From Candidatus Woesearchaeota archaeon (GTDB taxonomy: Archaea; Nanobdellota; Nanobdellia; Woesearchaeales; GW2011-AR15), in NCBI GenBank assembly GCA_038874655.1, contig JAVZBY010000002.1, positions 57,335 through 121,334 on the forward strand: DNA of 64,000 nt. The letters run 5' to 3'. Shown here piece after piece: positions 21,465 through 60,337 of the stretch (the stretch's first letter is position 1; every line of letters begins with the position of its first letter). A program made the position numbers and the translations under genes. The notes beneath the pieces were generated by a model. It did not search any database. It worked only from the letters and a program-made list of their open reading frames with translations, and was not told the origin of the DNA.

Positions 21465-21492
21465 AATAAAATAGATACATCAGATATTTAAA

Positions 21493-22347: not shown

Positions 22348-22351
22348 AAAA

Positions 22352-26987: not shown

Positions 26988-27122
26988 AAAAAGAAAAAAC
27001 TTTGGAATGTATTTAGGTATATATCAGAGATATAACAAAATTTTATAGATATGCTTAAAATAATTATTATAATCTTATATTATTAGTTTTTTAATACTAT
27101 AGAATTTTAAGATGTGGTAAAA

Positions 27123-29845: not shown

Positions 29846-30430
29846 TTGGTAGGAAGTAAATTAGAGAAAGAAATAATATCTATTTTTAATAGAGATATCT
29901 CTACACTTCTTAGCATAAATCAGATTTCAAAAAAACTTAAAAAATCCTATCCAAATATTAACAATAAAGTCAATTCTTTAATCAAGGAGGGAATTCTGAC
30001 AAAATTAGAAACAGGAAGAAGTTATTTATGCACTATAAATCTAGAAAATGAAAAAGCAATAGCACTTCTTACAATAAATGAAGCAGATAAGAAAAAACAA
30101 TATGAAAAAAAAATTAATTTAATAAAAGAAGAAATAAATGATATAAAAAATAAATTCAAAGTTTATACTATTTTGCTTCATAATACAACATTAATTTTTG
30201 TTTTAGATTACTTGAATGATAAAGAAGCAATAAAAAATCTTTATGAAAATATAAAAAAATTTGATTTAATCTTTTTTGATAAAACTTCTTTTCAACAATA
30301 TCTAATTAAAAATCCAAACCTCTTAAATGAATTTATAATTATTTATTCGTATGAGAAGTATTATGAACTAGTTAATGAAATAAAAAACAATCTTATCTTG
30401 AATAATAAAAAAGTAAAAAACAAGGATTAA
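29846..30430 (+). CDS. Putative winged-helix DNA-binding protein preceding the giant gene
   Basis: LSINQISKKLKKSYPNINNKVNSLIKEGILTKLETGRSYLCTINL looks like an HTH plus wing. The start codon is TTG according to the track. Confidence 0.5.
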   Translation: MVGSKLEKEIISIFNRDISTLLSINQISKKLKKSYPNINNKVNSLIKEGILTKLETGRSYLCTINLENEKAIALLTINEADKKKQYEKKINLIKEEINDIKNKFKVYTILLHNTTLIFVLDYLNDKEAIKNLYENIKKFDLIFFDKTSFQQYLIKNPNLLNEFIIIYSYEKYYELVNEIKNNLILNNKKVKNKD

Positions 30431-30469: not shown

Positions 30470-33400
30470 ATGAATTCAGAAAAAAATTATCCGAAATTTG
30501 TATCATTGTTTTTAATTATATTAATTATAGTAATAAGTATAGTAATAATCAATGCACAAAATCTTTTAGAAAACAATTATATAAAAATTAATAAAAAAGA
30601 ATTCTTCTTAGGTGAAACAGTTGAAATAGAGCTTTTAATAAATGACCTAAATAATATTAACATTGATTTATATACACCAAACGCAATATATAAATATCCT
30701 TTTCCTTCAAAAATTATAAAATATAAACCAATATTAGAGGGTAATTATAGATTAGTGGTTTTAAAAAATAAAGAAATATTAACAACAACAACTTTTTTTG
30801 TTAAAAAAAATGAATATAATTTGATTGAAGAAATATTAAATCAGTCAACTATTAAAAATAACGAAGAAACTGAAAACCTCTTAGATATTAATAAACCTAA
30901 TTTAATTACAGATAAAGAAACATATCTTCTCAATCAAGAGGTTATAATTAGCATTAATAACCTATCCATAGATGATTTATCTAACTATAATTTAATTATA
31001 AATAGTTCTAATACTATTATTAATTATATAGATTTAAAATCAAACACAATAAAATTTTTTCCAAAAAAACAAGGTATTTATACATTAATATTAATAAGCA
31101 AAAAATCAAATGAAGAGATAGCAAAAAAAGAAATTTCAGTTAATTCATTTAATCAACAGTTTAATAATGAAATCTCTTTAAACTATGATAATAAAACTAA
31201 TTCTATTAATAATAACATAGACAATCAAAAAGAAATTATGATAAATCAATCAATAGAATATTCAGATAATTTATTTAATAATTCAAAAAATATTGAACAG
31301 CTTAACAGACAATATAATAATTTACCTTTTAAAATTAAGAATAGTAAAAATTATTTCTTAATAGCAAACATCACAATATCAAATAAAAGATTAAAAAACC
31401 TCTCATTAGACACATTTTCATTTATTAACTTATCAGATGACCTTTATGATATAGAAATTCAACCAAATATTAGACAAATAAGAAAAATAAAATTACATAA
31501 TGTATCATTTAAAGGCAATTTTGATTTAGGTCTGGAAGAAATTGATTCTCAAGCAACAAAATTTAAAGATATTAAAAAAGCAATTGCTATTGATCCAAGC
31601 AAAATTAATTTCACAAATGGTTTTATTGAAATAAATGCTACTTCAGATGTATTGTTAAAATGTAAAGATTGGAACTTTACAGAGCAGAAATGCTTTGGAA
31701 AATTTGAATTAATAAAAACATTAAATAAGGGACAAACCTATTTTATTGATATAAATAGCACAGATCCTGCATACTATGAGTTGGGGTTAGCATCTATAAA
31801 TACAAATAAATCCTTATACAAAGAAAATGAAACAGCACAAATATGGATTGTTGCACTAGATTATACAGGACATTTAATATCTAATGCAAATATAACTTTA
31901 CAAATAATTTCACCCAATAATGAGATTTTTATATTTTCTACAGATTCAAATATTTCCCAAATAGAATTAGGAATTTATGAATTAAATTTCACAACAAAAG
32001 AACAAGGTAATTACACTATATTTGCAAATGTTTATAGTAATTTAATTAATACAACTTTATTTAGTTTTTTCTCTGTAGTTGATTATTATGAATTTGAAAT
32101 AATAAGAAAAAGTCCATTAACCACAGATCCTTGGCGTGATACTTTTACAACAAAATTAAAAATAATTTCAAACAACCATAATGGCTTATTTAATTTAACA
32201 GAAAAAATACCAATCGGCTTTGAGATTATTGAAACAGATGCTATTATAACAAATGATTCAAATTATTATTATCTAACTTGGAATAATTTACAAAACAATT
32301 CAGAAGTTAATTACACAGCATTAGCTCCTTTTATTACTCCTGCAGTATACGAATTTAAATCCTTTGTTTCTTATGAAATGAATAATCAATCTTTAATATT
32401 TAACGAAGCAAAACCATGGTTCTTAGCAGTAGATCCTATTATGTACACACAAGTTTGTCAAGCACAAATTAACTCAGTAGGTCAAAATACATTTGGAAGT
32501 GCATGTGATGGTGTTTATCCAAGCTCATGTAGCGCTACTGGAGATTTATTAACTTGTAATGATAATTTTTTTGAAACCCATACAGGCACCAACACAAACA
32601 GATGGGCAGGTGTTAGAATTTCAGCATATGATTCAACAATAAGAGATTGTGTTTCAATAACTAGAGTTGAATTATGTTATGAATGGTGGCGTGATATAGG
32701 ATTTAGCAATGCAAGAATTGCAGTTGATAGAAATAATTGGGCTTCACCAACAACAGTAACAACAACATTACCTGGAACAACTGCAAACCCAGGAGTTACT
32801 TGTGCAGATGTTACTTCTTTAGAAGCATGGACATGTGATAATTTTGACGGAACAGGACAAGCAGCACAGGCAGTAGCACAAGCACAAAGAGATAATTCTG
32901 GCTCAACAAGAACTCTTTACATTGATGTTTTGTTTTTTAATGTGACTTATTTAAGAGATTACCCTCCAAACATAACACAAAATAGACCACCTTCATATTA
33001 TTATAACGATACTTTCAGCCCAATAAATATTACATTTAATTGCTCTGCTGTTGATGATATCAGAGTTAGTAATATCTCATTATATATAACAAATCTAAAT
33101 AATAATTCATTTGCATTAAATCAAAGCTGTAATATCTTAGCAACATCTGGAAGTTGTCAATGGACTTTATTATTGCCAAGTGGAAATTACACATGGAATT
33201 GTTTAGCTTATGACAATAGAACACAAGGAACATGGGGCACAAATAGAACAATAATTATTAATTACACTATGCCACCAACACCAAAGATTAATTCTTATAG
33301 TTGTGAAATAAATACACTAAATAATTGGCAGCCATGTAATACAATAGCATATGGCAATACTATATTAAGGGTTAGAGCAAATTGTACAACAGACTCAGGA

Positions 33401-36400
33401 TTAATAACAAACACAACCTTCTTGTTATATAATCTTCCTGATAACATTTATTTATTAAATGGCACATCTACAACACAAACATCAGGATATTATATTTATG
33501 ATAATCCTGATTTACAAATAACTGACTCAGGATACTTTAATTTAAGTGTCCAATGTTTCAATTCATTTAATAAAAACCAAACAAATACTACAGCATGGAA
33601 TTTAGCTTGGGGTACTTTAAGTTCTCAATTAATTTATCCATTTGAGCCTATATCTGTTCCTCAAAATTCAACTTTTAATTTTACTTCAAGATTAACTTGT
33701 TTAGGTGGTGAATGTGGTGATGTAAATGCAACATTGGATCCGATTTATATTGTTTTATTTAATCATACCTTTGAAACAGGATTAGAAGATTTTATTTGGT
33801 TAGATGACATTTATGGCACAAATCAACCAACACAATCAGAGGGTTATGTTACAAACAGAATTTTTTGTCCTAATGGTTTTTGTTTATTTGGTGATTTGCA
33901 TACTGTAAATAATAGCAATACAGGTCCTTGGAGTGGTGGCTTTAACAAAACATTTAATTTAACATCTTATACCTATGGATTAAAAGCAAACATTACAGTT
34001 AATATAACTTTTGATTATAACTTAATAATAGATCAGACAACAGAAGCAGGAGAATATGTTTATCTTTATTATAGAAATATCACCTCAAAAACATCTGTAC
34101 AAGGTCCTAACATACAAGGTTCAGGAGCAGGCGGAACTGATGAGGTATTTGAAAATGTCTCAGGTAGAATTTCTTTAATATTTTATAATGTCTCTGATGT
34201 TTTTTCATTTGATGTTGGTTGTTATATGACTGACACAAATGCCAATGACGAAGACGGTGGTTGTTTTATTGATAATATTTTAATTCAAGCAACTGTTGAA
34301 TTAAATAAAGGAAAAATTTCTAATATCCCCGGAACAAAACCCTTCTGGACATTGTCACCTAATCCTTATACAGAAGCGAATTTAGCATGTTTAAGAAATA
34401 TGATAGCTGGCCAAAGTTGTAACACTACTTGGGTTGTTAATGCAACAGGTCCTTTATACACGACATGGGACTTTTTTGTTTTATATGAGCCTACAGAATA
34501 TTCAAGTTATCTTTCATTTAATAAATCTAAATCAGTTAATATAACAATAACCGATATGGTTAGACCTGTTATTACTTTTGTACAATGTCAAAGAAATTCA
34601 ACTTCTTGGGTTTCATGTGATTCTATAAAATACAATGAATACATCTCAGGTGTTAGAGGCACTTGCACATATACAGAAGGCATTATAACAAGTATGAGTT
34701 TTAATTTAAAAAACCAATTTTACAATAGGACTTATTTTGATGTTTCAACCACAGACAATTCAACTAACTATTGGACATCAACCTTTAGTCCAATTAGAGT
34801 TAATAACTCAGGTAATTTTGCTTTGTATTCAAGGTGTTATGCAAACTCTCTATTTGGTGATTATTCATTAAATTGGTCTTTACCTTATGGAACAATCTAT
34901 ATTTCATGGATAAATTTATCTAGTGAAGTAAATGTAACGCAAAATAAATTTTCTAATTTTTCTGTTTTATTAACATGTCAAGGAGGAGAATGTATAAACA
35001 TAAGTGCATTTATTGATCCAGAAATAGGCCAACAATTTGCATTAATGACCTTTGATGGTTCAACTAATTTTCCATTAAGGGATGGTCTATGTAACACAGC
35101 AACAGATACATGCGCATTAAGTAATCCTTGGGATGATTTTGACAATTGTATTGCAGGAAATGGTCAATATGGAATATGTGCATCAAGATATGCTGGCTCT
35201 GGTGGAACAGAAAGAGGTTTATTATGCCAAGGATGTGATAGAAATAATGCAGGAAACACAGGCGGCTTATATATTTCATTAAACTCAACACCATGTGGTG
35301 GCTATCCTTGTCAATATATTTTTATTTCATATTATCAAGCAGTACAAAGCATGGATGCAGCAAATGAAGGCAGTGTTGTTTTAGTTAGGGATAATGATGG
35401 TATTTGGCGAGAAGTTTCAAGATGTATTGATAATGACTTATGCGATTGTGATAGAATAGCAGGATGTACTTTAGCCACAATCGGACAATATGCACAATAT
35501 GTAAATGTAAATTTATGTGATATCCCAGGAATTGATTGTACTCAACCATTAGATATATTTTTCACTTCTTACGCAACTAATGTAAATCAAGGAACTGGAG
35601 ATTACTTTATGTGGGATCAAATTAATATAACAGGCTATTTACCAAAAGGGATTATATCTTATGGAAGTGGCTCTCCTTTTTATACTACCTATGCTAATCC
35701 TGTTTATAGACAAAATAATTCATGTTTAGCTTATTTAGATGTAGGCCAATCTTGTATAATTACCTGGCCAGTAAATGCAACAGGAAACTTAAATTCTCTA
35801 CACGAATTTTATGTAAATGCCACAACCTTTAATAATCAAACAACTCAAAGTTCAATAATTGATGTAAGAATAACAGATAATAAACTGCCTTATGTTTCTT
35901 TTATAACTTTGAATCCAATTAATCCAACTTCTTATGATAATTTAAATTGCTCATTTATAATAAATGATGCTAATTATTTTGATAAATTATATGCAAACAT
36001 AACATGGTATAGAAATGATATTGTTTATTCAAATCAAATGATATCCATTAATAATAATCAATTAACTTCAGTAATTTTATCAAGCTCCAATACAAATAAC
36101 GGAGAAGTTTGGCATTGTGGTATAACACCTTATGACGAAACTGTTTATGGAAATCAATTAAATTCAACAAAAGTCAATATCCTAATTAGTCAGCCACCAA
36201 TAATCTCTAATGTACAATGCCAAAGAAACTCAACTTCCTGGGTATCATGTTCAGATATTAAGTTTAATGATATTTTAACAATGGTTAGAGCACAATGCAT
36301 AGATTTAGATGGTTATGTAATGAATGTTACTTTTAATTTAACAAATTTTGAAGACAAATATTTATTTTTTAAAAATACAACCTATATGCCAGAATCAGGA

Positions 36401-39400
36401 TATTACTACTTTAATAATACAGATATCCTAATAAGAGATTCTGGTAATTTTAATTTATCTGTTTCTTGTATTGATGATACTAATGTAGAAACAGTTTATT
36501 ATTTAACTTGGCTTGTTCCATTTGGAAAATTAAAAGGGCAATGGTTAAATCCCCCAAATATTAATGTAAATGTTACTAGGTATAAATTATCTAACTTCTC
36601 AGTTAGAATTATATGCGAGGGTGGTGAATGCGGAAATATTACTGCGGTTTTAGATCCCTTAATATTATATCCACAAGCGAACATGGATTTTGAATCTCCA
36701 ACTAATTTTCCATTAGCCACTGGACAATGTGGCACTGGCGCAGGTTGGCAATGTGCAGATTCTTCTCCTTGGGATGATTTTGACAATTGTATAGGCGGAA
36801 ATGGTGTTTATGGTATTTGTGCATCAACAGAAGCAAACTCAGGAGAAACAGGCATTAGAGGTTTAGAATGTAGGGGTTGTGATAGAGCAGATGCATTAAA
36901 CCAAGGTGGATTATACATAAACATTCCAGCAAGATCTTGCAATGACTATGTTTGTGAGCAAATCAATATTTCTTTTTACCAAATTGTTCAAAGTATGGAT
37001 AATGCAAATGAAGGAAGCGCTGTCTTAGTAAGAGATGAAGATGGAATTTGGCGTAATTTAACAACTTGTATGGATAATCAACCAAGATGTGATTGTGATG
37101 TCATTCCTGGCTGTACTAGAGCAGAAATGGGTGCTTATGCTCAATTTTTCAAAAAAGATTTATGTCAAGTTCCAGGAATAAATTGCAGTCAAAATATAAG
37201 TATTTTATTTACTTCTTATAATCTAATAAATCATGGAACAGACGATTATTTCGCATGGGATAAAATTTTAGTTGAGAAATATGGACAAAAAGGCATTATT
37301 CCAGTTGGTAGTGGTTTTCCATTTTATGTAATTGAAAACAATCCTAGAACATGGAATGATTTTTCATGTTTATATAATATGACCTCTGGAGACTCATGTG
37401 AAATTACATGGCAAGTAAATGCAACTGGAAACTATAATAAAACACATGAGTTTTTTGCTTATTTTAATTCAACATATTCAGCTATCGAATTAAATGAAAC
37501 AAAACATATTTATGTAACAATTACAGATAACTTTCCACCGAGAGTTACTTATGTCGAAATTGGTCCAGAAGTTGCGCTTAATGATACAGATATCTATTGT
37601 AGCTTTATTATAACAGATCCAAATTACTTTGATAGTTTATGGGCTAATATAACATGGTATAGAAATAAAACTTTCTACTTTAATCAACAAGTTCCTATAT
37701 CCATAAATACACTAACACAAGTTTATTTATTGGCAAATAATACAGAGCCAGGTGAATATTGGCACTGTGGTGTAACACCTTTTGATGGTTCTATTTATGG
37801 AAATCAAGTTAATTCAACAAATTTAACAATTTATTTATATCCACCCCCAAGCATAAATTCAATACAATGTAATGTGAATGGATTATGGAAAGATTGTAAA
37901 AATATTTTGTATTTTACTAATTTTTCAGCAATAAGAACTAATTGTTCCTCAAATGAAGGAATGGTTAATGCAACATTTAACTTCACAAATATTCCTGATA
38001 ATAAAGTATTCTTTAACAATTTAACAACAACCTACTCAAATGGCTATTTTATTTTTGATTTTGAAGACATAAACATTACAGATTCAGGTGAAATGGAAAT
38101 TTATGCAAAATGTATAGATAATGTTAATCAAGTTGTTTATGGAAAAGTAAATTGGACAATTCTTTGGGGAACACTAACAGCATCCTTAGTTTATCCAGAC
38201 TCAGATACAAGTGTTCAAAGAAATAACTTCTTTACTTTCCAAGCAAGAGTAACTTGCTCGGGGGGTGAATGTGGAAACATAAATGCAACATTAGATCCTT
38301 ATACAAATTCAACTATTTATGATTTTAAGCAAGGATATAATATTGATAAATTCGCTTGGGTCATAGATAGTAATAATAATCCACCAGAGTCATTGCCAAA
38401 TTCAAGAACAGCATTAACTTTAGCACAAGTTGCACTGATAAATGTTTCAGATAATAATAGATATACAATGCCAGATCCAGGAGCGGGTGATTGGATTTCA
38501 TTGGATATGATAATGAATATAAAAGAAAAAAGAGAAGACATAACAAAAATGCAATTTTATTTTGAGGGTTATCCTAATATAGCATCAACATTACAAATAT
38601 ATGCATGGAATTTTAATACAAATACATGGAACTCATTAGGAACACAGTCTTTTTCAACAGGTTCTGACCAAATAATGACAGTAAATATAACATCAAATAT
38701 ATTAAATTACATAAATGCTTCAAACAATAATATAAGATGGCTTTTATTAAATACATTAACTAGTGAATACATATTAGTTGATTATGTTTATGTAAATATA
38801 ACTTATAATGCGTATAAAGGAATTATCCCAAGACAAGAAGGTGCAATTCCTTTTTATACAAGAGACTATAACCCAAAAGATTATACAAATCAATCCTGTT
38901 TGGGCAATATGATATCCGGCCAATCATGTATTGCATCATGGTTAGTTAATGCCACAGGACCTTTAGGTTCAACACATGAATTTTTTGTTTATTTCAATGC
39001 AACAAATTATTCACAATATATTATGCCTAAAGAAACAACCCATATCTTTATTACAATAACAGATTCAACATTAGTACCGCCAATTGTTATTTTAAATGAT
39101 CCTCAAGATAATTTATACACAAATAATCAAAATATTATATTTAATTGTTCAGTTACAGATAATTTTAATTTAAAAAATATTAGTTTAGTAGCTGATTTCA
39201 ACGGAATTTTTGATATAAATGAAACTTATCAAATAACTGGAACATCAAACACATCTTTATTTTACAAATATTTAGATGATGGAAAATACATATGGAATTG
39301 TTTGGCTTATGATTCAGATAATAATTTAGATTGGGGAAATTCAAATAGAACTTTAACAATTGATACAAAAGAGCCAACAATAATCTTAAATAATCCTTTA

Positions 39401-42400
39401 AATGAGTCCTCTTTTACTACAACAAACCTTGCTTTAAACTTTACAGTAATTGATGCATTAGATAAAATACTAAATTGTGATTTATACTTAAATGGATTTT
39501 TATATCAGCAAAATATTAATGCAAACAATAATTCTAATACAATAATTAATTTAATAAATTTAACACCTAATACTTACAAATGGTTTATTACTTGTATAGA
39601 TGATGCAACAAATATGAATGTTAGTGAAGAATATATATTTTATATATCAGATTTACCTCCAAGTGTCAGCTTATTAACACCTAACAATATTTATTTTAGA
39701 ACACCAAACATTTCATTATTTTATTTTGCTACAGATAATTTAAATATTAATCTATCAACTTTGATATTAAATGGTTATCCTTTTGCATATCAATATAATT
39801 TAGGAACATCAGTAATATCAAGTTTTAATTTAACTTATATGCCAGAGGGATTATATAATTGGACTGTTAATGTTTCTGATTCTAGTAATTTAACAGATCA
39901 AGCCCCATATAGATATTTCACGATAGATTATACAGAACCAATAATTTACATTTATGCTCCAGATAATAATTTGACAATTAATGAAACACAAACAAGAATC
40001 AACTTTACAGTTGTAGATAATTTAGATTTCATGATAATGTGTAATCTCACTATAAATAATCAAATTGCTCAAACAAACATACCAGCAATTAATAATTCTT
40101 TTGTTTCATATTTAATTACAAATTTCTATGATGGTTTAAATTATTGGAATTTAACATGTTTTGATGATGCAGGTAATTATATCACTTCTGAAACGAGGAT
40201 ACTAAATGTTAGTGCTCCTCCAAATGTTGTTTTAAATTATCCCTTTAATAATCATTTCCAAAACCAACAAAATATAACTTTATATTATACACCACAAGAT
40301 AATGTTAATTTATCTGTCTGTGAATTATTTATTAATGGTCAATATAATCAATCAAACATTGAAATAACAAATGGAGTACAAAATACATTTGAATTAACAT
40401 CCTTAAGTGAAAACATATACTCTTGGTCTGTAAGATGTAATGATACTTCTAATCTTTCAACAATGTCAGAAACAAGAATATTTACAATAGATTTGACAAA
40501 GCCAACAATTTATTTATTATATCCAAATAATGGTGATACTATTTATGGAAAATGGACCAATTTTAATTTTAGTGTTATTGATAACTTTGATATAAACTTA
40601 TCTTGTAATATTACAGTTGACGGATTAATAAGAAAATCTAATTTACCTGTTTTGAATAACACACCAACTAATTTTACAATAAATGTAAGTGATGAAGGTC
40701 CTCACACATGGTATATAACCTGTATAGATGATGCAACTAATTTTAATGTCAGTGAAACAAGAAATTATTTCACAACAAATCCGCCAGAAGTGCAATTAGT
40801 TTTCCCTAATAATGGAGCAATTATTAATTATAACTTAATTAATTTCACTTATATACCGATTGATGATAATTTAGCAAGTGCAACCTTAATTTTAAATGGA
40901 CTAAGAAATGAAACAAATACTACTTTATACAATGAACTAGAGAATTATTTCAGAATTTATTTAACAGATGGAATTTATAATTGGACTGTCAATGTAACAG
41001 ACGCAACAAATCTTTATACAATGCCTGATGTATTAACTTTTACAATAGATTCAACACCTCCATTAATAACAATACATCATCCTGCTGGTTTTGAAATATT
41101 AGATTGGAATAATATCACCTTCAACTTTACTGTGAGTGATAATTTATTTCAACCAATTTATTGTAATATAAGTATTAATTCAGTTCCACAATTTACTAAT
41201 ATTCCAGTAAATAATAATTCCAATGTAATTAGATATTATTCTCTAAATGATGGTACTCATTCATGGCAAGTTAGATGTATTGATTTAACAAATAATACTG
41301 CAATACAAACACAGAATTTCATAGTAGAAGCACCACCAAGAGTAAATCTAATAAATCCAGTAAATCAAACAAGAACAACACAACAATCTTTTAATTTCCA
41401 ATATTTACCCTATGATGTCTTTGGTCTTTATAATTGTACTTTAATATTAGATAATAAATTAAATGAATCTAGTTCCTCTATATTGAATAACCAAATTAAC
41501 ACTTTATTTGTTTCATATATACCAGAAGGTTTACATAATTGGACAGTAAGATGTATTGATAATCCTCCAGATTATAATTCATATCAGCCAGAACCTTGGC
41601 AATTTAGAATTGACTTAACAGGACCAACAATAATTCTAAAATATCCTATGCAAGACCAAACATTTAATTTAAACAATATTACTTTTAATTACACGGCAAT
41701 TGATTCTGATAATATTATAATTGATTGTAATATATCTGTGTCAGACCCATATGGAAATAGATTAAATGCAACTTCAATGCCTGCAGGATATGATCATATA
41801 ATAACTATAACAAATCTTGCAGATGGAGATCATTATTGGAATGTTACTTGTGTAGATGATCTAGGAAATGTTAATACAAGTGAAACAAGAAGATTTATTA
41901 TTAATCAACCAGATTTATTTACAAATAATAATCTTGTTTTCCTAAACAACATAAATCCAGATTTATATGAAAACATTACAATTTCCATAAATGTATCAAA
42001 TATAGGTGGACAACCAGCAAACAATGTTTTAGTAAACTTCTATGATGGAAATCCGAATTTAGGTGGCTTATTTATAGGTAATGATACTAACTCAGTTGCA
42101 ATAAACCAAACTATTGCATTTACAACATCATGGCTAATAACACCAGGTTATCATACAATTTACATTAGTGTAGATCCATATAATCAGATTTCTGAATTAG
42201 ATGAAACTAATAATAATGCAACAATTAATATAAGTGTATTATGGGCTAACATTACAAATCCAAAAAATCAATCCTGGTTTAATACATTAATAGTTCCAAT
42301 AAACTTTACTGCATATGATTACACAGGAAATTCAATTACTTATATTGTTTTAATTGATAATACTCCTAATGGTCAAAATGGTTATGTAATTGATAGCATA

Positions 42401-44860
42401 AATAATGAATTAAATGTTTCATTTACACAAGGCATACATACAATAAAAATTAGAGTTAATGACACTTATTATTACTTAGGAAACACATTACAAAGAATAA
42501 AAGATTCATTGCCCATAATTTTATACATTGATACAACTCCACCAACAATTACATTTAATACATTTAATTTAACATGGTTTAATTCAGAGCCAATAATAAA
42601 CTTCACTATAACAGATAATTTAGATAATTTAATTAATTATATAATTTATATAAATAATAATCCAGTTACATCTGGATCAGCAAATTCAAGCCCACAAAAC
42701 ATAACAATATATAATTTACAAAATGGAACTTATGAAATCTATATAGAAGCATTTGACGAAGCACTTAATTATAGAAATTCCTCTGTATTAACAATTTATC
42801 TAGATACTGTAAAGCCAACAATCTACTTATTGGCACCTCAAAATGGAATCTCTTTATTAGCTAATTATACAACCTTTAATTTTTCAGTAATTGATAATTT
42901 AGACACATTATTACAATGTAATTTAACAATTGATGCTAAAGTGAATGTTTCAAACATATATGCTTATAATAATTCTATAAATAGCACAGCTGTTTATAAT
43001 TTAAGAGAAGGCACTCATTATTGGAATGTTAGTTGTTGGGATGGCAACTTAATAACACCTGTAAGTTTAATAAACACTTCAGAAACATATTACTTCAATG
43101 TATATAATCCACCTATAATAAAGCTAATACAACCAGAAAACAACAATTGGACAAATAACCCAGAAGTTATTTTCTTCTTTAATGTTAGTGAGGAAACAGG
43201 ATTGCAAAACTGCTCTATTTTATTAAATGGAATTATTCAAAATACAAAACAAGGTAATTTACTTAATAAAAATGGTTTAAATAATATAACTTTAACAAAC
43301 TTAAATGGCACATATTCTTGGCAAATTGAGTGTTATGATAATACAACAATTTATAATTATGCAATCTCAGAATCAAGAACTTTAAATGTTGATTTAGATG
43401 CACCGATTCCTTATATAGAAACATTAAATAATACTTGGTTTAATTATAATAATCCCTTAATCTATTTTAATATATCTGATAACATGGCTTCAATAATTAA
43501 TTATACTTTTTATGTGAATTCAACACAAAACAGACAAGGCAGTGTAAATAATGCAACATCCACATCTATTAATTTAAATCCAATTCAAGATGGTTATTAT
43601 TTATTAACATTAGAGGCATTTGACTATGCTTACAATAGAAGAAATAGTTCCTCTATAACAATTTTTGTTGATACAACTAAACCAACAATAAGTTTATTAT
43701 CTCCAATTAATGGATTCAGCACATCAGATACAAATATATTGTTTAACTTTACATCATTAGATAATTTAGCAAAAACAATGATATGTAATTTAACAGTTGA
43801 CAATCAAATTATTAAATCATTCAACACGACATCAGGGTTATCTAATTACACTTATTTAAATATGGCAGCAGGTATTCATTATTGGAATGTATCCTGTTCA
43901 GATTTAGTTGGTAATTTCAATACAAGTGAAACATATTACTTTATAATCCCATTGCCTGATTTATATGTATCAGCAGATTATATCCTCTTTAATACAACAG
44001 CACCAGAAGAAAATACAAATATAACTATAAATGCAACAATCTTTAATATAGGAAACACAACTGCATACAATGTTACAATACAATTCTGGGATGGTCACTA
44101 TTTAAATGGAACACAAATTAATGGAAATTTTACATATAATATTTCAGCAGGCCAAAACATAACTATTAATTTATCATGGAAAGTAAGTTCTGTAGGAGAC
44201 CACTTTATCTATGTTATAGCTGATCCACCCTTACAAACAAATGGAACGATTAAAGAATCTAATGAAACAAATAATTATGCATATAAACTTATAATTGTTG
44301 GTAGTTATACATATATTTATGGTAATTTCTCAGGATTCCTAAATTTAAAGGACTTAAACAATATAACTGTCTATCAATGGGATATTAATGATTTAAACGG
44401 TTCAAAAATATTTGCTGTTGATTATGATAGTATTATAGATTGGCAGAAATTACAAGCAATCTCTAGAGATATTTATAATAACTATGTGTCTAATGACTTT
44501 TATGAAATAGATTTAGCATTAAGAATGGAAAATAACTCTGATTCTATAAATAAAACATGGATCTATAATAATAATCCTTATTACACAAAAAATTATAATG
44601 TTTTCCTCAATAATATACAAAATATTCCTTTTATTAACTCAACAAATACTACAAATTTCCAAACAGGTATTTTATGGGATTACTCTGATGGAAACACGCA
44701 ATATAATGGGACACAGGATTTAGTATTTTTTACAATTGTTAATATAAATCAAACAGGAATACATGGAAAATATGACTACGAATTAAGAGTTCCAGCAAAC
44801 TTAAGATATTATAAACAACCAAATATAGCTACAATTGCATTATATACAGAATTAAAATAA
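30470..44860 (+). CDS. Giant (4,796 aa) secreted, sequon-rich, multi-repeat adhesin-like surface protein
   Basis: A single uninterrupted 14.4-kb ORF. N-terminal signal FVSLFLIILIIVISIVIINAQN. Four macro-repeats ending in C.GGECG(D/N).NA.LDP. About 15 Ig-like ~95-aa repeats. Two CARDB-like domains (ITISINVSNIGGQPANNVLVNFYDG..ETNNNATINISV and ITINATIFNIGNTTAYNVTIQFWDG..ETNNYAYKLIIV). I see no C-terminal TM. Confidence 0.9.
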   Translation: MNSEKNYPKFVSLFLIILIIVISIVIINAQNLLENNYIKINKKEFFLGETVEIELLINDLNNINIDLYTPNAIYKYPFPSKIIKYKPILEGNYRLVVLKNKEILTTTTFFVKKNEYNLIEEILNQSTIKNNEETENLLDINKPNLITDKETYLLNQEVIISINNLSIDDLSNYNLIINSSNTIINYIDLKSNTIKFFPKKQGIYTLILISKKSNEEIAKKEISVNSFNQQFNNEISLNYDNKTNSINNNIDNQKEIMINQSIEYSDNLFNNSKNIEQLNRQYNNLPFKIKNSKNYFLIANITISNKRLKNLSLDTFSFINLSDDLYDIEIQPNIRQIRKIKLHNVSFKGNFDLGLEEIDSQATKFKDIKKAIAIDPSKINFTNGFIEINATSDVLLKCKDWNFTEQKCFGKFELIKTLNKGQTYFIDINSTDPAYYELGLASINTNKSLYKENETAQIWIVALDYTGHLISNANITLQIISPNNEIFIFSTDSNISQIELGIYELNFTTKEQGNYTIFANVYSNLINTTLFSFFSVVDYYEFEIIRKSPLTTDPWRDTFTTKLKIISNNHNGLFNLTEKIPIGFEIIETDAIITNDSNYYYLTWNNLQNNSEVNYTALAPFITPAVYEFKSFVSYEMNNQSLIFNEAKPWFLAVDPIMYTQVCQAQINSVGQNTFGSACDGVYPSSCSATGDLLTCNDNFFETHTGTNTNRWAGVRISAYDSTIRDCVSITRVELCYEWWRDIGFSNARIAVDRNNWASPTTVTTTLPGTTANPGVTCADVTSLEAWTCDNFDGTGQAAQAVAQAQRDNSGSTRTLYIDVLFFNVTYLRDYPPNITQNRPPSYYYNDTFSPINITFNCSAVDDIRVSNISLYITNLNNNSFALNQSCNILATSGSCQWTLLLPSGNYTWNCLAYDNRTQGTWGTNRTIIINYTMPPTPKINSYSCEINTLNNWQPCNTIAYGNTILRVRANCTTDSGLITNTTFLLYNLPDNIYLLNGTSTTQTSGYYIYDNPDLQITDSGYFNLSVQCFNSFNKNQTNTTAWNLAWGTLSSQLIYPFEPISVPQNSTFNFTSRLTCLGGECGDVNATLDPIYIVLFNHTFETGLEDFIWLDDIYGTNQPTQSEGYVTNRIFCPNGFCLFGDLHTVNNSNTGPWSGGFNKTFNLTSYTYGLKANITVNITFDYNLIIDQTTEAGEYVYLYYRNITSKTSVQGPNIQGSGAGGTDEVFENVSGRISLIFYNVSDVFSFDVGCYMTDTNANDEDGGCFIDNILIQATVELNKGKISNIPGTKPFWTLSPNPYTEANLACLRNMIAGQSCNTTWVVNATGPLYTTWDFFVLYEPTEYSSYLSFNKSKSVNITITDMVRPVITFVQCQRNSTSWVSCDSIKYNEYISGVRGTCTYTEGIITSMSFNLKNQFYNRTYFDVSTTDNSTNYWTSTFSPIRVNNSGNFALYSRCYANSLFGDYSLNWSLPYGTIYISWINLSSEVNVTQNKFSNFSVLLTCQGGECINISAFIDPEIGQQFALMTFDGSTNFPLRDGLCNTATDTCALSNPWDDFDNCIAGNGQYGICASRYAGSGGTERGLLCQGCDRNNAGNTGGLYISLNSTPCGGYPCQYIFISYYQAVQSMDAANEGSVVLVRDNDGIWREVSRCIDNDLCDCDRIAGCTLATIGQYAQYVNVNLCDIPGIDCTQPLDIFFTSYATNVNQGTGDYFMWDQINITGYLPKGIISYGSGSPFYTTYANPVYRQNNSCLAYLDVGQSCIITWPVNATGNLNSLHEFYVNATTFNNQTTQSSIIDVRITDNKLPYVSFITLNPINPTSYDNLNCSFIINDANYFDKLYANITWYRNDIVYSNQMISINNNQLTSVILSSSNTNNGEVWHCGITPYDETVYGNQLNSTKVNILISQPPIISNVQCQRNSTSWVSCSDIKFNDILTMVRAQCIDLDGYVMNVTFNLTNFEDKYLFFKNTTYMPESGYYYFNNTDILIRDSGNFNLSVSCIDDTNVETVYYLTWLVPFGKLKGQWLNPPNINVNVTRYKLSNFSVRIICEGGECGNITAVLDPLILYPQANMDFESPTNFPLATGQCGTGAGWQCADSSPWDDFDNCIGGNGVYGICASTEANSGETGIRGLECRGCDRADALNQGGLYINIPARSCNDYVCEQINISFYQIVQSMDNANEGSAVLVRDEDGIWRNLTTCMDNQPRCDCDVIPGCTRAEMGAYAQFFKKDLCQVPGINCSQNISILFTSYNLINHGTDDYFAWDKILVEKYGQKGIIPVGSGFPFYVIENNPRTWNDFSCLYNMTSGDSCEITWQVNATGNYNKTHEFFAYFNSTYSAIELNETKHIYVTITDNFPPRVTYVEIGPEVALNDTDIYCSFIITDPNYFDSLWANITWYRNKTFYFNQQVPISINTLTQVYLLANNTEPGEYWHCGVTPFDGSIYGNQVNSTNLTIYLYPPPSINSIQCNVNGLWKDCKNILYFTNFSAIRTNCSSNEGMVNATFNFTNIPDNKVFFNNLTTTYSNGYFIFDFEDINITDSGEMEIYAKCIDNVNQVVYGKVNWTILWGTLTASLVYPDSDTSVQRNNFFTFQARVTCSGGECGNINATLDPYTNSTIYDFKQGYNIDKFAWVIDSNNNPPESLPNSRTALTLAQVALINVSDNNRYTMPDPGAGDWISLDMIMNIKEKREDITKMQFYFEGYPNIASTLQIYAWNFNTNTWNSLGTQSFSTGSDQIMTVNITSNILNYINASNNNIRWLLLNTLTSEYILVDYVYVNITYNAYKGIIPRQEGAIPFYTRDYNPKDYTNQSCLGNMISGQSCIASWLVNATGPLGSTHEFFVYFNATNYSQYIMPKETTHIFITITDSTLVPPIVILNDPQDNLYTNNQNIIFNCSVTDNFNLKNISLVADFNGIFDINETYQITGTSNTSLFYKYLDDGKYIWNCLAYDSDNNLDWGNSNRTLTIDTKEPTIILNNPLNESSFTTTNLALNFTVIDALDKILNCDLYLNGFLYQQNINANNNSNTIINLINLTPNTYKWFITCIDDATNMNVSEEYIFYISDLPPSVSLLTPNNIYFRTPNISLFYFATDNLNINLSTLILNGYPFAYQYNLGTSVISSFNLTYMPEGLYNWTVNVSDSSNLTDQAPYRYFTIDYTEPIIYIYAPDNNLTINETQTRINFTVVDNLDFMIMCNLTINNQIAQTNIPAINNSFVSYLITNFYDGLNYWNLTCFDDAGNYITSETRILNVSAPPNVVLNYPFNNHFQNQQNITLYYTPQDNVNLSVCELFINGQYNQSNIEITNGVQNTFELTSLSENIYSWSVRCNDTSNLSTMSETRIFTIDLTKPTIYLLYPNNGDTIYGKWTNFNFSVIDNFDINLSCNITVDGLIRKSNLPVLNNTPTNFTINVSDEGPHTWYITCIDDATNFNVSETRNYFTTNPPEVQLVFPNNGAIINYNLINFTYIPIDDNLASATLILNGLRNETNTTLYNELENYFRIYLTDGIYNWTVNVTDATNLYTMPDVLTFTIDSTPPLITIHHPAGFEILDWNNITFNFTVSDNLFQPIYCNISINSVPQFTNIPVNNNSNVIRYYSLNDGTHSWQVRCIDLTNNTAIQTQNFIVEAPPRVNLINPVNQTRTTQQSFNFQYLPYDVFGLYNCTLILDNKLNESSSSILNNQINTLFVSYIPEGLHNWTVRCIDNPPDYNSYQPEPWQFRIDLTGPTIILKYPMQDQTFNLNNITFNYTAIDSDNIIIDCNISVSDPYGNRLNATSMPAGYDHIITITNLADGDHYWNVTCVDDLGNVNTSETRRFIINQPDLFTNNNLVFLNNINPDLYENITISINVSNIGGQPANNVLVNFYDGNPNLGGLFIGNDTNSVAINQTIAFTTSWLITPGYHTIYISVDPYNQISELDETNNNATINISVLWANITNPKNQSWFNTLIVPINFTAYDYTGNSITYIVLIDNTPNGQNGYVIDSINNELNVSFTQGIHTIKIRVNDTYYYLGNTLQRIKDSLPIILYIDTTPPTITFNTFNLTWFNSEPIINFTITDNLDNLINYIIYINNNPVTSGSANSSPQNITIYNLQNGTYEIYIEAFDEALNYRNSSVLTIYLDTVKPTIYLLAPQNGISLLANYTTFNFSVIDNLDTLLQCNLTIDAKVNVSNIYAYNNSINSTAVYNLREGTHYWNVSCWDGNLITPVSLINTSETYYFNVYNPPIIKLIQPENNNWTNNPEVIFFFNVSEETGLQNCSILLNGIIQNTKQGNLLNKNGLNNITLTNLNGTYSWQIECYDNTTIYNYAISESRTLNVDLDAPIPYIETLNNTWFNYNNPLIYFNISDNMASIINYTFYVNSTQNRQGSVNNATSTSINLNPIQDGYYLLTLEAFDYAYNRRNSSSITIFVDTTKPTISLLSPINGFSTSDTNILFNFTSLDNLAKTMICNLTVDNQIIKSFNTTSGLSNYTYLNMAAGIHYWNVSCSDLVGNFNTSETYYFIIPLPDLYVSADYILFNTTAPEENTNITINATIFNIGNTTAYNVTIQFWDGHYLNGTQINGNFTYNISAGQNITINLSWKVSSVGDHFIYVIADPPLQTNGTIKESNETNNYAYKLIIVGSYTYIYGNFSGFLNLKDLNNITVYQWDINDLNGSKIFAVDYDSIIDWQKLQAISRDIYNNYVSNDFYEIDLALRMENNSDSINKTWIYNNNPYYTKNYNVFLNNIQNIPFINSTNTTNFQTGILWDYSDGNTQYNGTQDLVFFTIVNINQTGIHGKYDYELRVPANLRYYKQPNIATIALYTELK
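33704..38272 (+). repeat. In-frame macro-repeat region of the giant gene, delimited by four GGEC anchors
   Basis: GG(T/A/G)GG(T/A)GAATG(T/C) occurs at 33704, 34982, 36619 and 38261, giving spacings of 1278, 1637 and 1642 nt. Units 2 and 3 are collinear paralogues and share a 27-nt perfect match (35125..35151 = 36766..36792). Confidence 0.9.
39070..43950 (+). repeat. Array of about 15 Ig-like coding repeats (~280-290 nt each), largely alternating between two types
   Basis: Type A: PP.V.L..P.N...(F/Y)..(D)N..L..C.L.(L/I)NG...Y.W.V.C.D.SN. Type B: (K/E)PTI.L..P.NG......NF.V.DNLD....CN(L/I)T(V/I)(D/N)...H.W.(V/I)(T/S)C.D.A.N. Approximate starts are 39070, 39369, 39655, 39936, 40213, 40497, 40780, 41052, 41330, 41620, 42241, 42534, 42808, 43105, 43390 and 43675. 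Confidence 0.85.
44300..44857 (+). other. C-terminal tail module of the giant protein, homologous to the small secreted proteins at 52654 and 53556
   Basis: YIYGNFSGFLNLKD..VYQWD..IIDWQKLQAI..DSINKTW..FQTGILWD..LVFFT..KYDYELRVPANL..IALYTELK. Confidence 0.8.
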
Positions 44861-44881: not shown

Positions 44882-46744
44882 ATGAAAAATAAAAACATAA
44901 TAAGAATTACTTTATTTTTATTTGTTTTAATATTATTTAGTTTTATTATTGTTATTTATATTGCAAAAGCACAATGTCAATTAAAAGAAATTCCGTTTTT
45001 TGAATTAAATGAAGGGGACATTTTTAATTATACTTTAAATTTTGTAAATCAAAACATTTCTGAAAAAGGATTATCAGAAATTAAAATTTCACTTATAAAG
45101 ATAAATTCTTCAATAAATCCTGTGATTAAAAATAATCTAATTAATTTTAAAGCAGATCAAAACTCAGGAAACAAAAATTCGTTTTTAATTGTTTCAACAA
45201 TGGAAAATGGGTGCTATGATGTTAAGAAATTTGATTTTTTTGTTTATTTAAAACCTAAAATTATGGAAAAAAACCCAATAGAGGATTATTTAGAAATTTA
45301 TGAGACACAATCAATAAAATTTTATGCTTCAGCATATTCTTTTTATGATACTGATGTAAAAACAGAGTGGTATTTAAATGGAATTAAACAAAAAGAGAGT
45401 TCTAATTCTTATATCTTTTTCACAAATTATAGTTCAAAAGGATTATTCACATTAGAATATGTTGCAAAAGATAAAAGGCAAAACACAACAATAAAATGGT
45501 TAATAAATGTAAAAGATAAAAATAGAAAACCTATTTTAAGATTTAATATTCCTGACTTTGTTTTAACAAATTATACAAGAGGAAGATTATTGAATTTAAA
45601 TGATTACTTTCAAGATCCAGATTTAGACAAATTAAAATTTGAATTAGTTTATTTTGATAAAATTAATAATTCTATTAAAGAAAAGTCCTATGAAATTTTT
45701 AATTTTAGTATTAAAGATAATGGTGATTTTGAAGTTTATCCAATTAAAAACATTTATTTAACAGAATATCTTAAAGTAATTGCTTATGATTTTCAAGGAG
45801 AAAAAGCAGAAAGCAATATTTTCTTTATGAAATTAGTTAATTCAGATAATATAAGTTATATCTTTCTAAATACTTCAAAAAAAGAACAATGTAAACCAAA
45901 TATACAATGTACAGAATGGAGTCCATGTTTGATTACAAACATTAGAACAAGAGAATGTTTTGATGTAAATAATTGTAATTCAGAGAACACTACAATTACA
46001 GAAACAATGCATTGTGATTATAATGCTACTTGTAATGATGGAATTTTGAATCAAGGTGAAGAAAAAGTTGATTGTGGTGGCCCATGTGAACCCTGTCCAA
46101 CTTGTGATGATGGTATTTTAAATCAAGGTGAAGAAAAGGTTGATTGCGGCGGTCCTTGTCAAGCTTGCGAAAATTGTTATGATGGTATAAAAAATCAAAA
46201 TGAAATATTTACCGATTGCGGTGGTCTATGTAAAAGTTGTTTATTATTAGATATTATTAACTTCATAAAAAGTTATTATTATTTAGCATTTATATTTATA
46301 TTTTTATTAATTATAAAAATCTATTCAAAAAACATTAGTAGTTCTGATAAAATAAAAAATTATATCTTTTATTCAAAACTATTTAATTTTTTACCTAAAA
46401 AAATTCCAGAAAATTATAAAGAGATTTTTACTCAAACAATTTCAGATTTAACAAGCATAAAAAATGATATTTTAAATCTTGAAGATAAAGAAAAAATAAA
46501 AGAGAAATTTTATAATATTATAGATAACTTTTACAAAAATTTTTTAGAATTAGATCTTGTAAATAATATTACTGTAAAAAATTCTTCAAAAAAAATAATA
46601 AATCCCTTTTTAAGAGAATTAATCTTGTTATTGTATTATGATACAAGAGATATTTCAGTTGAATCACCTTTTTATAGAATTGAGTTAAATGAAAAAATAG
46701 ATCAAACAATTGCAATATTAAATAAGATTAGGGATTTATTATGA
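44882..46744 (+). CDS. Surface protein: signal, Ig/cadherin-like region, TSR-like Cys motif, 3x CxDGxxNQxExxxDCGGxC mini-domains, TM, cytoplasmic tail
   Basis: LNLNDYFQDPDLDKLKFEL (cadherin-like). QCTEWSPCLITNIRTRECFDVNNC. CNDGILNQGEEKVDCGGPCEPC, CDDGILNQGEEKVDCGGPCQAC and CYDGIKNQNEIFTDCGGLCKSC. TM YYLAFIFIFLLIIKIY. Confidence 0.75.
   Translation: MKNKNIIRITLFLFVLILFSFIIVIYIAKAQCQLKEIPFFELNEGDIFNYTLNFVNQNISEKGLSEIKISLIKINSSINPVIKNNLINFKADQNSGNKNSFLIVSTMENGCYDVKKFDFFVYLKPKIMEKNPIEDYLEIYETQSIKFYASAYSFYDTDVKTEWYLNGIKQKESSNSYIFFTNYSSKGLFTLEYVAKDKRQNTTIKWLINVKDKNRKPILRFNIPDFVLTNYTRGRLLNLNDYFQDPDLDKLKFELVYFDKINNSIKEKSYEIFNFSIKDNGDFEVYPIKNIYLTEYLKVIAYDFQGEKAESNIFFMKLVNSDNISYIFLNTSKKEQCKPNIQCTEWSPCLITNIRTRECFDVNNCNSENTTITETMHCDYNATCNDGILNQGEEKVDCGGPCEPCPTCDDGILNQGEEKVDCGGPCQACENCYDGIKNQNEIFTDCGGLCKSCLLLDIINFIKSYYYLAFIFIFLLIIKIYSKNISSSDKIKNYIFYSKLFNFLPKKIPENYKEIFTQTISDLTSIKNDILNLEDKEKIKEKFYNIIDNFYKNFLELDLVNNITVKNSSKKIINPFLRELILLLYYDTRDISVESPFYRIELNEKIDQTIAILNKIRDLL
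46031..46240 (+). repeat. Three tandem in-frame copies (72, 72 and 66 nt) of the CxDGxxNQxExxxDCGGxCxxC mini-domain
   Basis: Copies start at the TGT codons at 46031, 46103 and 46175. Copies 1 and 2 are nearly identical at the protein level. Confidence 0.9.
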
Positions 46745-52463: not shown

Positions 52464-52673
52464 ATGAAACCAACTGAATGGGTTAAATTAGTTTATAGTG
52501 AAACCCCTGATAAAGCAAATGTAAAACAGGGTTTTCTTTATGATGAGGGAGATTTCTATAGAATTGTTGGTTCTAATTCTGAAACACTTGTAAGAAAAGT
52601 CAATGTCATCTCTATTACTAAAAAAATTAATTTTGAAAAAAAGGTGAGAAACTATGAAAGAATTAGGCTATAA
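52464..52673 (+). CDS. Small hypothetical protein, 69 aa, first gene of the secreted-protein operon
   Basis: AGCAGGTG lies upstream of the ATG. It overlaps the next gene by 20 nt. No motif is recognised. Confidence 0.45.
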   Translation: MKPTEWVKLVYSETPDKANVKQGFLYDEGDFYRIVGSNSETLVRKVNVISITKKINFEKKVRNYERIRL

Positions 52674-60251: not shown

Positions 60252-60337
60252 AAAGCCACCTTTTTTCATAAATACTAAAAACACGAACCAATTTTAAATT
60301 TTTCTATGCACATTGACTATCTAAAATTATTTTTTAT

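Follow-up and report, generated by a model that had tools for sequence, protein, structure and literature searches.

What a member of the Woesearchaeota does with a protein of 4,796 amino acids (aa) is the question raised by one gene in a 64,000-nucleotide (nt) stretch of a Candidatus Woesearchaeota genome (assembly GCA_038874655.1, contig JAVZBY010000002.1, positions 57,335 to 121,334), called the window here. The gene occupies 30470..44860 (+) of the window, and its product, of about 540 kDa and acidic (pI 4.4), is called the giant. A sequence-only reading of the same DNA had described a very large secreted protein whose repeats are arranged hierarchically, and that description and its module order turned out to be essentially right. 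The giant is an intact, native, exported protein with a chassis found across its family. We think it fairly probable that it is a glycosylated, multivalent adhesin fibre, where the attachment and the glycosylation are what we infer, and within that reading attachment to a host is more likely than the capture of polymers or particles.

Is the gene sound? The open reading frame (ORF) starts with ATG and has zero internal stops, which confirms the single uninterrupted frame that had been claimed. At the composition of this region (27% G+C) stops are expected at 8.6% of codons, so the chance of a frame this long staying open is about 10^-187; the remaining five frames over the ORF are full of stops, with 279-644 each, and their longest open run is 102 codons. 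The longest DNA repeats inside the ORF measure 33-86 nt at 60-91% identity, and being old and diverged they are unlike the kind that assembly collapses or expands. Collinear copies are also found in independent assemblies. A QW757-tagged Woesearchaeota metagenome-assembled genome (MAG; GCA_038889695.1) holds three fragments, all ending at contig ends: P0006 follows aa 414-1976 of the giant (89.8% identity), P0156 follows aa 2122-3670 (98%, gapless), and the first gene of locus L002 follows aa 3124-4796 (79.9%, 1,672 vs 1,673 aa). The overlap of two of these fragments is only 75.5% identical, which means that two versions of the giant gene, whether alleles, strains or paralogues, are present in that bin. 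Another MAG (L004) carries an open frame collinear with aa 2556-4795 at 79% identity. At 49% identity, P0008/L007 (4,336 aa) is collinear with aa 1271-4796, and its module order equals the giant's from the first cassette, as we call a macro-repeat, to the tail, with four cassettes and ten immunoglobulin-like (Ig) repeats.

The open frame, the short diverged repeats and these copies make it extremely improbable that the gene was misassembled or is a pseudogene in decay, with repeat numbers that are wrong. That suspicion is fed by the short-read assemblies of relatives, which break within the gene, and by aa 1977-2121 (inside macro-repeat 3), the sole stretch uncovered by the closest independent fragments. 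The concern about repeats that the sequence-only reading had raised is largely answered by the repeats themselves and by the independent assemblies.

The gene also appears to belong where it stands. G+C is ~17-31% across the window overall and rises to 30% at window positions 32000-38000, in the cassette region, vs 17-24% in the flanks. The rise is limited to codon positions 1 and 2, and G+C at third codon positions (GC3) is low throughout the segments of the giant gene and its neighbour genes (0.12-0.17, and 0.14-0.17 in 32000-38000). Uniform GC3 shows that the giant gene is native, that the cassette G+C reflects a composition rich in Gly, Ala and Cys, and that a foreign origin of the GC-richer region can be ruled out. 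Phage origin was ruled out by zero PHROG matches for the nine modules and neighbours scanned. Near-identical repeat pairs of the template/variable type were sought in the window and none were found, and no reverse transcriptase is among the Pfam matches of the 30 window ORFs scanned (a set without 62011..62511), which rules out a diversity-generating retroelement target. A tRNA scan of the window returned none.

What does the frame encode? The module plan was drawn from self-comparison of 200-aa chunks, macro-repeat alignment and family-informed profile searches, and every module lies on the + strand. The protein opens with a signal peptide, probably of the Sec type and with predicted cleavage (aa 1-29, 30470..30556), whose hydrophobic segment at aa 10-28 is the only one in the giant; 'NAQ' comes directly after this segment, and there is no further transmembrane (TM) helix. 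Complete relatives likewise begin with classical Sec signal peptides, e.g. MMKKIVAIILFLLIFGVVSA|E. Two head repeats follow at aa 38-125 and 145-238 (30581..31183; profile search, second copy E 5e-19), which are N-terminal in relatives too, and then a head module at aa 284-445 (31319..31804), which has no Pfam match and occurs in 64 copies in 49 relatives. A beta region resembling MG2 and Big_1 spans aa 440-650 (31787..32419); its Pfam matches are weak (MG2 E 6e-4) and below curated cut-offs, and 19 copies were found in 17 relatives. The Cys-containing module at aa ~650-832 (32417..32965), again with no Pfam match, was counted 51 times among the 150 best relatives, 43 of which have it. A single Big_13-type Ig domain, supported by Pfam and profile search (aa 832-940, 32963..33289), leads into the macro-repeats.

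The macro-repeats start at aa 940, 1368, 1912 and 2462. Macro-repeat 1 (33287..34504) consists of a domain called Ig-A, a scaffold N-half (aa 1046-1095), an insert of type 1 (aa 1096-1262) and a scaffold C-half (aa 1263-1345). Macro-repeat 2 (34571..36184) has Ig-A, a split scaffold, a Cys-rich insert (aa 1518-1717) and an extra Ig domain (aa 1795-1905), and macro-repeat 3 (36203..37834) follows the same plan with its insert at aa 2065-2265 and its extra Ig at aa 2345-2455; these two are 50-58% identical. Macro-repeat 4 (37853..39013) has Ig-A and a split scaffold with an insert of type 3 (aa 2612-2767) and is, like macro-repeat 1, shorter. Then comes a stalk of 10 Ig-like repeats (aa 2870-3817, 39077..41920; profiles and Pfam Big_13), in which two subtypes alternate to give a super-period of 188 aa / 564 nt. 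CARDB domain 1 (aa 3812-3917, 41903..42220) matches Pfam CARDB and PDB entry 2kut (E 1e-6). A second Ig array (aa 3918-4498, 42221..43963) was resolved by profiles and architecture strings into one unassigned ~106-aa stretch and 5 Ig repeats. CARDB domain 2 (aa 4495-4604, 43952..44281; Pfam and profile search) and the tail domain (aa 4605-4796; 44282..44860 with the stop codon; profile and AlphaFold2 model) complete the protein.

The signal peptide, the two head repeats, the Cys-containing module, the four macro-repeats and the tail at the very end were thus all found where the sequence-only reading had put them in its order. It had also given about 15 Ig repeats interrupted by two CARDB-like domains. 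The counts hold, with 15-16 Ig repeats (10 before CARDB 1 and about 6 after) and two CARDB domains, while the second CARDB caps the array and interrupts nothing. The 'CARDB-like' half that it saw in the macro-repeats matches no Pfam family and is instead half of the split scaffold domain. Only two Pfam families exceed their cut-offs in the giant, and they cover part of the protein: CARDB (PF07705) with 80.4 bits vs a cut-off of 22.7 in two stretches, and Big_13 (PF19077) with 54.7 bits vs 27 in three stretches. An NCBIfam scan of the whole giant gave no match, and nothing above cut-off was found in Pfam, NCBIfam or PHROGs for the head, the Cys module, the scaffold, the inserts or the tail; Pfam and PHROGs were equally empty for the small proteins encoded nearby. 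Relaxing the Pfam threshold to E <= 10 brought up no DUF2341 or LamG domain, whether in the whole giant or in its inserts; these domains are confined to inserts of relatives.

How widespread is this plan? HMMER was run with giant aa 640-1839 and found 787 cluster representatives at E <= 1e-3, of which 163 reach E <= 1e-30, and many family representatives are themselves giants of 5,000-7,200 aa. A word-index search with macro-repeat 2 had found no homologue; given the 787 representatives from the exhaustive HMMER search, that null is a limit of sensitivity and not an absence. Named members are called 'hypothetical' or 'DUF2341 domain-containing protein' and come from Woesearchaeota or unclassified archaeal MAGs, such as MBN2422330.1 (5,808 aa) and MFH1174614.1 (7,039 aa), with ~40% identity over shared modules. 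A scan for the tail in one genome per GTDB species gave 154 encoding stretches, from which 75 loci were kept for study. They are labelled nearly all as Woesearchaeota, Nanoarchaeota, Nanoarchaeia or Pacearchaeota, with one Euryarchaeota (L055). The frame runs open to the edge of the fetched DNA in 54 loci, and over 30 of these have >3,500 aa. Names on the giant's nearest relatives are those of Candidatus Woesearchaeota, Nanoarchaeota or Pacearchaeota MAGs, which supports a DPANN archaeon as its source. Full-length family members are also found in L005-L007, L012, L018 and other third-party annotation (TPA) bins labelled 'uncultured Methanosarcinales archaeon' (e.g. a 263-kb contig with P0008); we suspect a labelling problem, and otherwise the family reaches beyond DPANN.

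These giants are true homologues, which share the head, Cys module, cassettes, 10-Ig stalk, CARDB domains and tail, and their common chassis can be written with module profiles as HH-M-G-(C)-i-{Ig-A + scaffold[insert] (+ extra Ig)}n, ten Ig, CARDB, 1-8 Ig, CARDB, tail. Its order starts with the signal peptide, two head repeats, the head module and the MG2-like region, with the Cys module present only sometimes. Repeat number was compared among relatives, as the sequence-only reading had proposed. A run of exactly 10 Ig domains was found in the giant and in 15 of the 16 large relatives examined, and the count of ten is kept among proteins sharing ~40% identity. The length of the stalk is fixed, whereas cassettes vary in number and content, and the homologous giants differ in their inserts: many relatives have LamG/DUF2341, CBM96 or a papain-like protease there, while the giant's own inserts have no Pfam match.

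The smallest version of the plan is encoded close by. A mini-paralogue of 917 aa (46741..49494, +), whose start overlaps the preceding gene by 4 nt, has the head repeats, the head module, one Ig domain and the tail, so a mini-paralogue does accompany the giant as had been noticed. Its head module (aa 282-434) is 32% identical to that of the giant and its tail 43% identical; its nearest relatives are 'Candidatus Woesearchaeota archaeon' MAG proteins with 67-68% identity. With a head, one Ig domain and a tail, the mini-paralogue represents the chassis at its smallest. A separate observation concerns the head module. At 6030-9844 of locus L003 (ERZ27245861 k141_96), a 508-aa head-module protein, 34% identical to the mini-paralogue, shares a cluster with a prepilin peptidase (Peptidase_A24) and a number of small proteins, a hint that the head module may be linked to type IV pilus-like machinery.

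What do the cassettes carry? Each macro-repeat has an Ig-A, then a ~50-aa N-half ending in ...C.GGECG.I.A.LDP, a variable stretch, and a ~85-aa C-half with the pattern KGII..G..PFY...NP...CL..M..G.SC..W.VNATG.... Scaffolds and inserts were counted in the 150 best relatives. N-half and C-half pair up 136 times there: the two stand 100-399 aa apart in 113 pairs and >=400 aa apart in 16, and in 7 the halves are nearly contiguous (gap -1 to 24 aa) and make one domain of 105-135 aa. The gaps in the giant's four cassettes are 156-201 aa. The seven contiguous pairs indicate that the N-half and C-half are halves of one beta-sandwich with a loop that carries the insert. Each macro-repeat is therefore predicted to be an Ig domain plus a ~110-aa beta-sandwich whose opened loop holds an inserted 'payload'. 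The scaffold has no match in Pfam, whether contiguous or artificially spliced. An AlphaFold2 model of macro-repeat 2, from a 4-sequence alignment, reached a predicted local distance difference test score (pLDDT) of 55, and a Foldseek search with it returned generic beta-sandwich arrays only (complement C3 MG domains, titin) at a template modelling score (TM-score) of ~0.15.

BLAST sorts the 114 inserts into 41 clusters. By Pfam, the largest, with 27 members, combines DUF2341 with Laminin_G_3, the concanavalin-type lectin fold. Cluster representatives at or above Pfam cut-offs match Laminin_G_3 with DUF2341, Peptidase_C1 (papain-like), CBM96, GH114_assoc and InhA-like MAM, and a NIDO match was seen below the cut-off only. 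The giant itself has four payloads of three types, with type 2 in two copies (macro-repeats 2 and 3), and none of the three types has a Pfam match. When the giant's inserts were compared with 38 other insert clusters by hhalign, only the insert of macro-repeat 4, type 3, was linked, weakly (73%), to a relatives' cluster whose representative matches Pfam GH114_assoc. The type 2 insert has 14 Cys; 10 Cys columns are invariant and 12 are >=80% conserved among nine copies that are 43-96% identical, and the insert may form six or seven disulfides. Binding of ligands by the giant's payloads is extrapolated from relatives, since its own inserts have no family and the model of the insert is unreliable.

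The inserts of the relatives are what make a different use of the fibre worth weighing: it may capture environmental substrates such as polysaccharides, proteins or particles, or scaffold extracellular enzymes, and so feed a biosynthesis-poor cell, with relatives degrading what is caught. CBM96, a LamG lectin, a GH114-associated domain and a papain-like protease among those inserts would suit this, and the same contig stretch encodes sensor kinases with solute-binding domains. The giant has no recognisable enzyme or carbohydrate-binding module (CBM), however, and a fixed 10-Ig stalk with a conserved docking-type tail suits a cell-bound spacer better than a free scaffold. We regard substrate capture as unlikely here, if worth keeping in mind; it and the adhesin reading describe one binding mechanism, and the target alone differs.

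The giant has 238 N-x-S/T sites (sequons) vs 106 +/- 8.7 in 1,000 shuffles (z = 15, 2.25-fold). The excess comes mainly from N-x-T (153 vs 61, z = 13); reversing the motif leaves no enrichment (z = 1.9). Within the window an excess of 2-2.5x is limited to proteins with signal peptides or ectodomains, while KaiC, a PAS protein, a histidine kinase and a cation transporter have 0.7-1.1x expectation, and the sequons of 16 relatives stand at 2.3-3.0x expectation whatever their Asn content. The high density that had been remarked on without a count is thus real and, within the window, confined to predicted extracellular proteins. This pattern is that expected of selection for N-glycosylation sites, and the giant is probably heavily N-glycosylated.

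Very dense sequons, an acidic composition and the lack of an enzyme domain would also fit a structural part of the envelope, that is, a protective glycoprotein coat or a fibre associated with the surface layer (S-layer) that has no specific ligand, and the tail-only proteins described below could then be lattice subunits. The cassettes, however, vary greatly among relatives (41 insert clusters, including lectins and a protease), a variety that fits diversifying recognition and does not fit a uniform coat. Typical S-layer subunits are also far smaller than 4,796 aa. A coat seems improbable to us on these grounds.

How would such a fibre stay on the cell? The giant has no C-terminal sorting motif: there is no PGF, no LPXTG and no C-terminal hydrophobic segment, and it ends in ...IALYTELK. 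A substrate of archaeosortase (PGF-CTERM type) was ruled out, as there is neither a PGF motif nor a C-terminal TM helix. Signal cleavage would leave the protein with no membrane anchor, so that it must either stay on the cell through non-covalent contacts or be released. The best candidate for docking is the tail, because it is conserved, terminal and has homologous stand-alone partners.

The tail profile matches the giant at aa 4598-4796 (E 2.5e-79), and in 75 of 75 related loci the tail is at the extreme C-terminus, mostly 0-2 residues from the stop and <=18 where the match is shorter. The AlphaFold2 model from a 27-sequence alignment (pLDDT 89.3, predicted TM-score 0.83) is compact and mostly beta with short helices. 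No significant Foldseek match was found for it in PDB (best E 0.28, TM-score <=0.2) or BFVD (best E 0.07), and the tail profile found no match among PDB sequences.

Downstream of the giant are two genes that each encode a signal peptide and a tail-like domain and little else. Tail-only protein A has 265 aa (52654..53451, +; tail hidden Markov model (HMM) E 9e-10) and tail-only protein B has 257 aa (53556..54329, +; E 1.5e-8 over the full tail). The HMM that matches them was built without those small proteins. A profile-profile comparison by hhalign of 25 tails with 84 small proteins gave 98.7% (E 4.5e-16, 159 columns). The module-only proteins that the sequence-only reading had placed beside the giant are accordingly real and homologous to its tail. 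In these proteins, after the signal peptide come ~50 residues and a tail-like domain ending in the ...FY.E(I/L) motif of the giants. The tail-only family has 91 members of ~250 aa, all annotated 'hypothetical' and found in the same archaeal groups as the giants. Both tail-only genes lie <=10 kb from a tail-bearing gene in 19 of the 46 loci that have >=8 kb of downstream sequence. Homology to the tail and this recurrence show that the link between tail-only proteins and giants is conserved.

The pair is accompanied by a third gene for a 307-aa secreted or membrane-anchored protein (54374..55297, +), with sequons at 2.5x expectation, which is found in 17 of the 46 loci and usually directly after the pair. 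Some nine loci have the genes for the giant, tail-only A, tail-only B and the 307-aa protein in this order on one strand, the tail-only genes beginning 166-1,500 nt past the giant's stop. Searches against PDB sequences returned nothing meaningful for tail-only protein B or the 307-aa protein. The tail probably holds the giant at the cell surface by assembling with the nearby-encoded tail-only proteins.

A second candidate anchor is the product of the gene 22 nt downstream of the giant, a 620-aa single-pass membrane protein (44882..46744, +) with a signal peptide, a beta region, three Cys repeats, a TM helix at aa 462-480 and a cytoplasmic tail. Homologues with >=50% coverage are found in 7 of the 75 related loci, and five of them start <200 nt past the giant's stop; L002 has one as well. 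The three tandem Cys repeats (window 45925-46243), each of 24 aa with the pattern CxDGxxNQxEExxDCGGxC, match no Pfam family. The same repeat recurs at window 56191-56515 in a paralogue of the 620-aa protein at 55309..57216 on the opposite strand.

How does the giant compare with systems that are already described? Surface proteins that are giant and rich in Ig domains are already known as a kind from episymbiotic archaea and bacteria, and the homologues of this giant are unannotated in public databases. A search of open-access papers and bioRxiv turned up none on this Woesearchaeal family, on its fixed chassis, on its plug-in scaffold or on the way its tails pair with tail-only proteins. Giant genes were surveyed in 10.1101/2023.11.21.568195, and an excerpt of PMC9793634 describes giant surface proteins of Patescibacteria, which are known episymbiont giants. 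One comparison by description is with the SPEARE proteins of Nanohaloarchaeota, which are treated under the heading 'Giant membrane-anchored extracellular proteins' (PMC10266531). These are the largest proteins of the cell, with 5,998-9,409 aa, an N-terminal signal peptide, long Ig-like runs, a membrane anchor and a VirB4/TraG-like ATPase domain; host contact has been proposed for them, and VirB4-like ATPases accompany the nanohaloarchaeal giants (PMC10266531). The giant resembles them in its DPANN source, its signal peptide and its long Ig-like runs. It differs in having no ATPase domain according to Pfam and NCBIfam and no TM helix beyond the signal peptide.

A conduit like SPEARE, which would secrete or inject effectors into a host, is suggested by the fact that both are Ig-rich giant surface proteins of DPANN archaea (PMC10266531) and by a HerA/DUF87-type membrane ATPase encoded 22 kb upstream (5038..8697). 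SPEARE is anchored in the membrane and carries its VirB4/TraG-like ATPase (PMC10266531), whereas the giant has neither, and we consider a conduit very improbable. For the adhesin fibre that we favour, bacterial fibres offer two analogies of design.

In bacterial RTX (repeats-in-toxin) adhesins, according to an excerpt of PMC12077191, ligand-binding domains emerge from 'split' extender domains, and the excerpts of PMC12077191 and PMC5550230 describe tandem beta-sandwich extenders in RTX and bacterial Ig-like (BIg) fibre adhesins such as MpIBP, LapA-type proteins, SiiE and an Aeromonas RTX adhesin. The giant is likewise a long beta-sandwich string with domains inserted in a split scaffold, which is an analogy of design and not homology. 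RTX nonapeptide repeats define RTX adhesins and their C-terminal type-1 secretion signal. With 0 GGxGxD motifs and no RTX Pfam match, the giant lacks this defining repeat and its type-1 secretion signal. It also differs in its Sec signal peptide, in coming from an archaeon without an outer membrane, and in repeats that are diverged and not near-identical.

The other analogy is with FimH-type tip adhesins of chaperone-usher pili, in which the part that binds is joined to a terminal domain whose homologues are small stand-alone subunits from the same gene cluster. The tail of the giant is homologous to tail-only proteins encoded nearby in the same way. This is an analogy only: the two are alike neither in sequence nor in structure (a Foldseek search of PDB came back empty), and chaperone and usher are both missing.

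Put together, the adhesin reading would work as follows. The Sec signal peptide would export the giant, and its roughly 35 beta-sandwich domains would form a long string at or close to the cell surface. If each domain spans ~4 nm, the fully stretched string is estimated at about 140 nm. The payloads would bind ligands, most plausibly glycans or proteins of another cell, and several payload types would make it a multivalent adhesin of several specificities. The conserved 10-Ig stalk would act as a spacer of fixed length that sets the reach, and the tail would dock the fibre at the cell surface together with the homologous secreted tail-only proteins.

Several points weigh against this picture. 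The giant is a protein predicted from its gene, and the fold of the split scaffold is likewise a prediction from sequence. The giant's three insert types match no family, and pLDDT is below 50 across the insert in the AlphaFold2 model, which is unreliable there. The lectin, CBM and protease inserts of relatives fit polymer or particle binding as well as hosts. Head and tail are both conserved, so conservation does not single out the end that faces the cell. Only 41% of the loci with enough flank carry tail-only genes within 10 kb, there is no gene for an oligosaccharyltransferase (AglB) within the window, and no Woesearchaeote host system was found in the papers searched (open-access and bioRxiv).

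A bolder version of the adhesin reading can be offered tentatively, and we hold it to be possible but doubtful. The family may be an undescribed archaeal system of surface display, in which a plug-in scaffold accepts >=41 unrelated payload types, a fixed 10-Ig 'ruler' sets their distance, and a tail with no match among solved structures docks onto an assembly of tail-only proteins, possibly with the 307-aa protein, much as the tip adhesin of a pilus joins its shaft. If this is true, the mini-paralogue and the tail-only proteins would be a minimal system for learning how DPANN cells anchor and aim attachment fibres.

The genes around the giant add further observations. Ending 40 nt before its start codon is a gene for a 194-aa winged-helix-like protein (29846..30430, +) with weak Pfam matches to HTH_24 and HVO_A0114, and homologues stand directly upstream of complete giants in four other loci (L016, L018, L028, L032). 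A ~70-aa domain that weakly resembles DUF5752 is common to four proteins (5038-8697, 8754-9650, 13421-17863 and 51061-52134). It is C-terminal in the 1,219-aa HerA/DUF87-type membrane ATPase (5038-8697) and N-terminal in a 298-aa protein; in a 1,480-aa secreted protein it comes behind the TM helix, where it is probably cytoplasmic, and in a 357-aa protein it is near the C-terminus. The domain may connect proteins of the surface with partners in the cytoplasm. Tail-bearing giants have homologues of the 1,480-aa and 357-aa proteins beside them in 21 and 25 loci, respectively.

The membrane protein at 5038..8697, 22 kb upstream of the giant, has a CarboxypepD_reg domain, two hydrophobic segments and an ATPase of the HerA/DUF87/AAA_10 type, and a copy with 47% identity lies downstream of a giant in L043. 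A KaiC-family ATPase (12574-13410) and a short KaiC/DUF835-like protein (27660-28190) have homologues <=10 kb from giants in 5 and 7 other genomes, respectively. A dense sensory block at 19647-27524 encodes a PAS/GAF protein, a solute-binding protein, a histidine kinase of 1,271 aa whose ectodomain is of the SBP_bac_3 type, and a response regulator, a signalling content that is notable for a DPANN genome. The C-termini of 10953..11492, 19647..21464 and 22352..23191 have a ~28-aa coiled-coil peptide in common. Lastly, a 610-aa protein (58452-60284) has an N-terminal signal-like segment, a TM helix near its C-terminus and a terminal zinc ribbon; its sequons are strongly depleted (1 vs 5 expected), and homologues are near giants in 4 loci.

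What does the locus mean for these archaea? How DPANN cells attach to other cells is largely unexplained outside a few cultured nanoarchaea and nanohaloarchaea, and fibres of this kind are the likeliest tools of these cells for holding hosts or surfaces. The locus gives them a testable anatomy, with conserved ends that resemble anchors, a fixed stalk, and variable payloads as the obvious place for specificity towards a host or ligand to reside. Structure determination has new targets here, since the tail, scaffold, Cys module and three insert types are all without a relative in Pfam or PDB. The split scaffold tolerates many inserts and is thus of interest as a natural display scaffold for engineering, and the content of the cassettes could help to predict the partners or niches of uncultured Woesearchaeota from their genomes.

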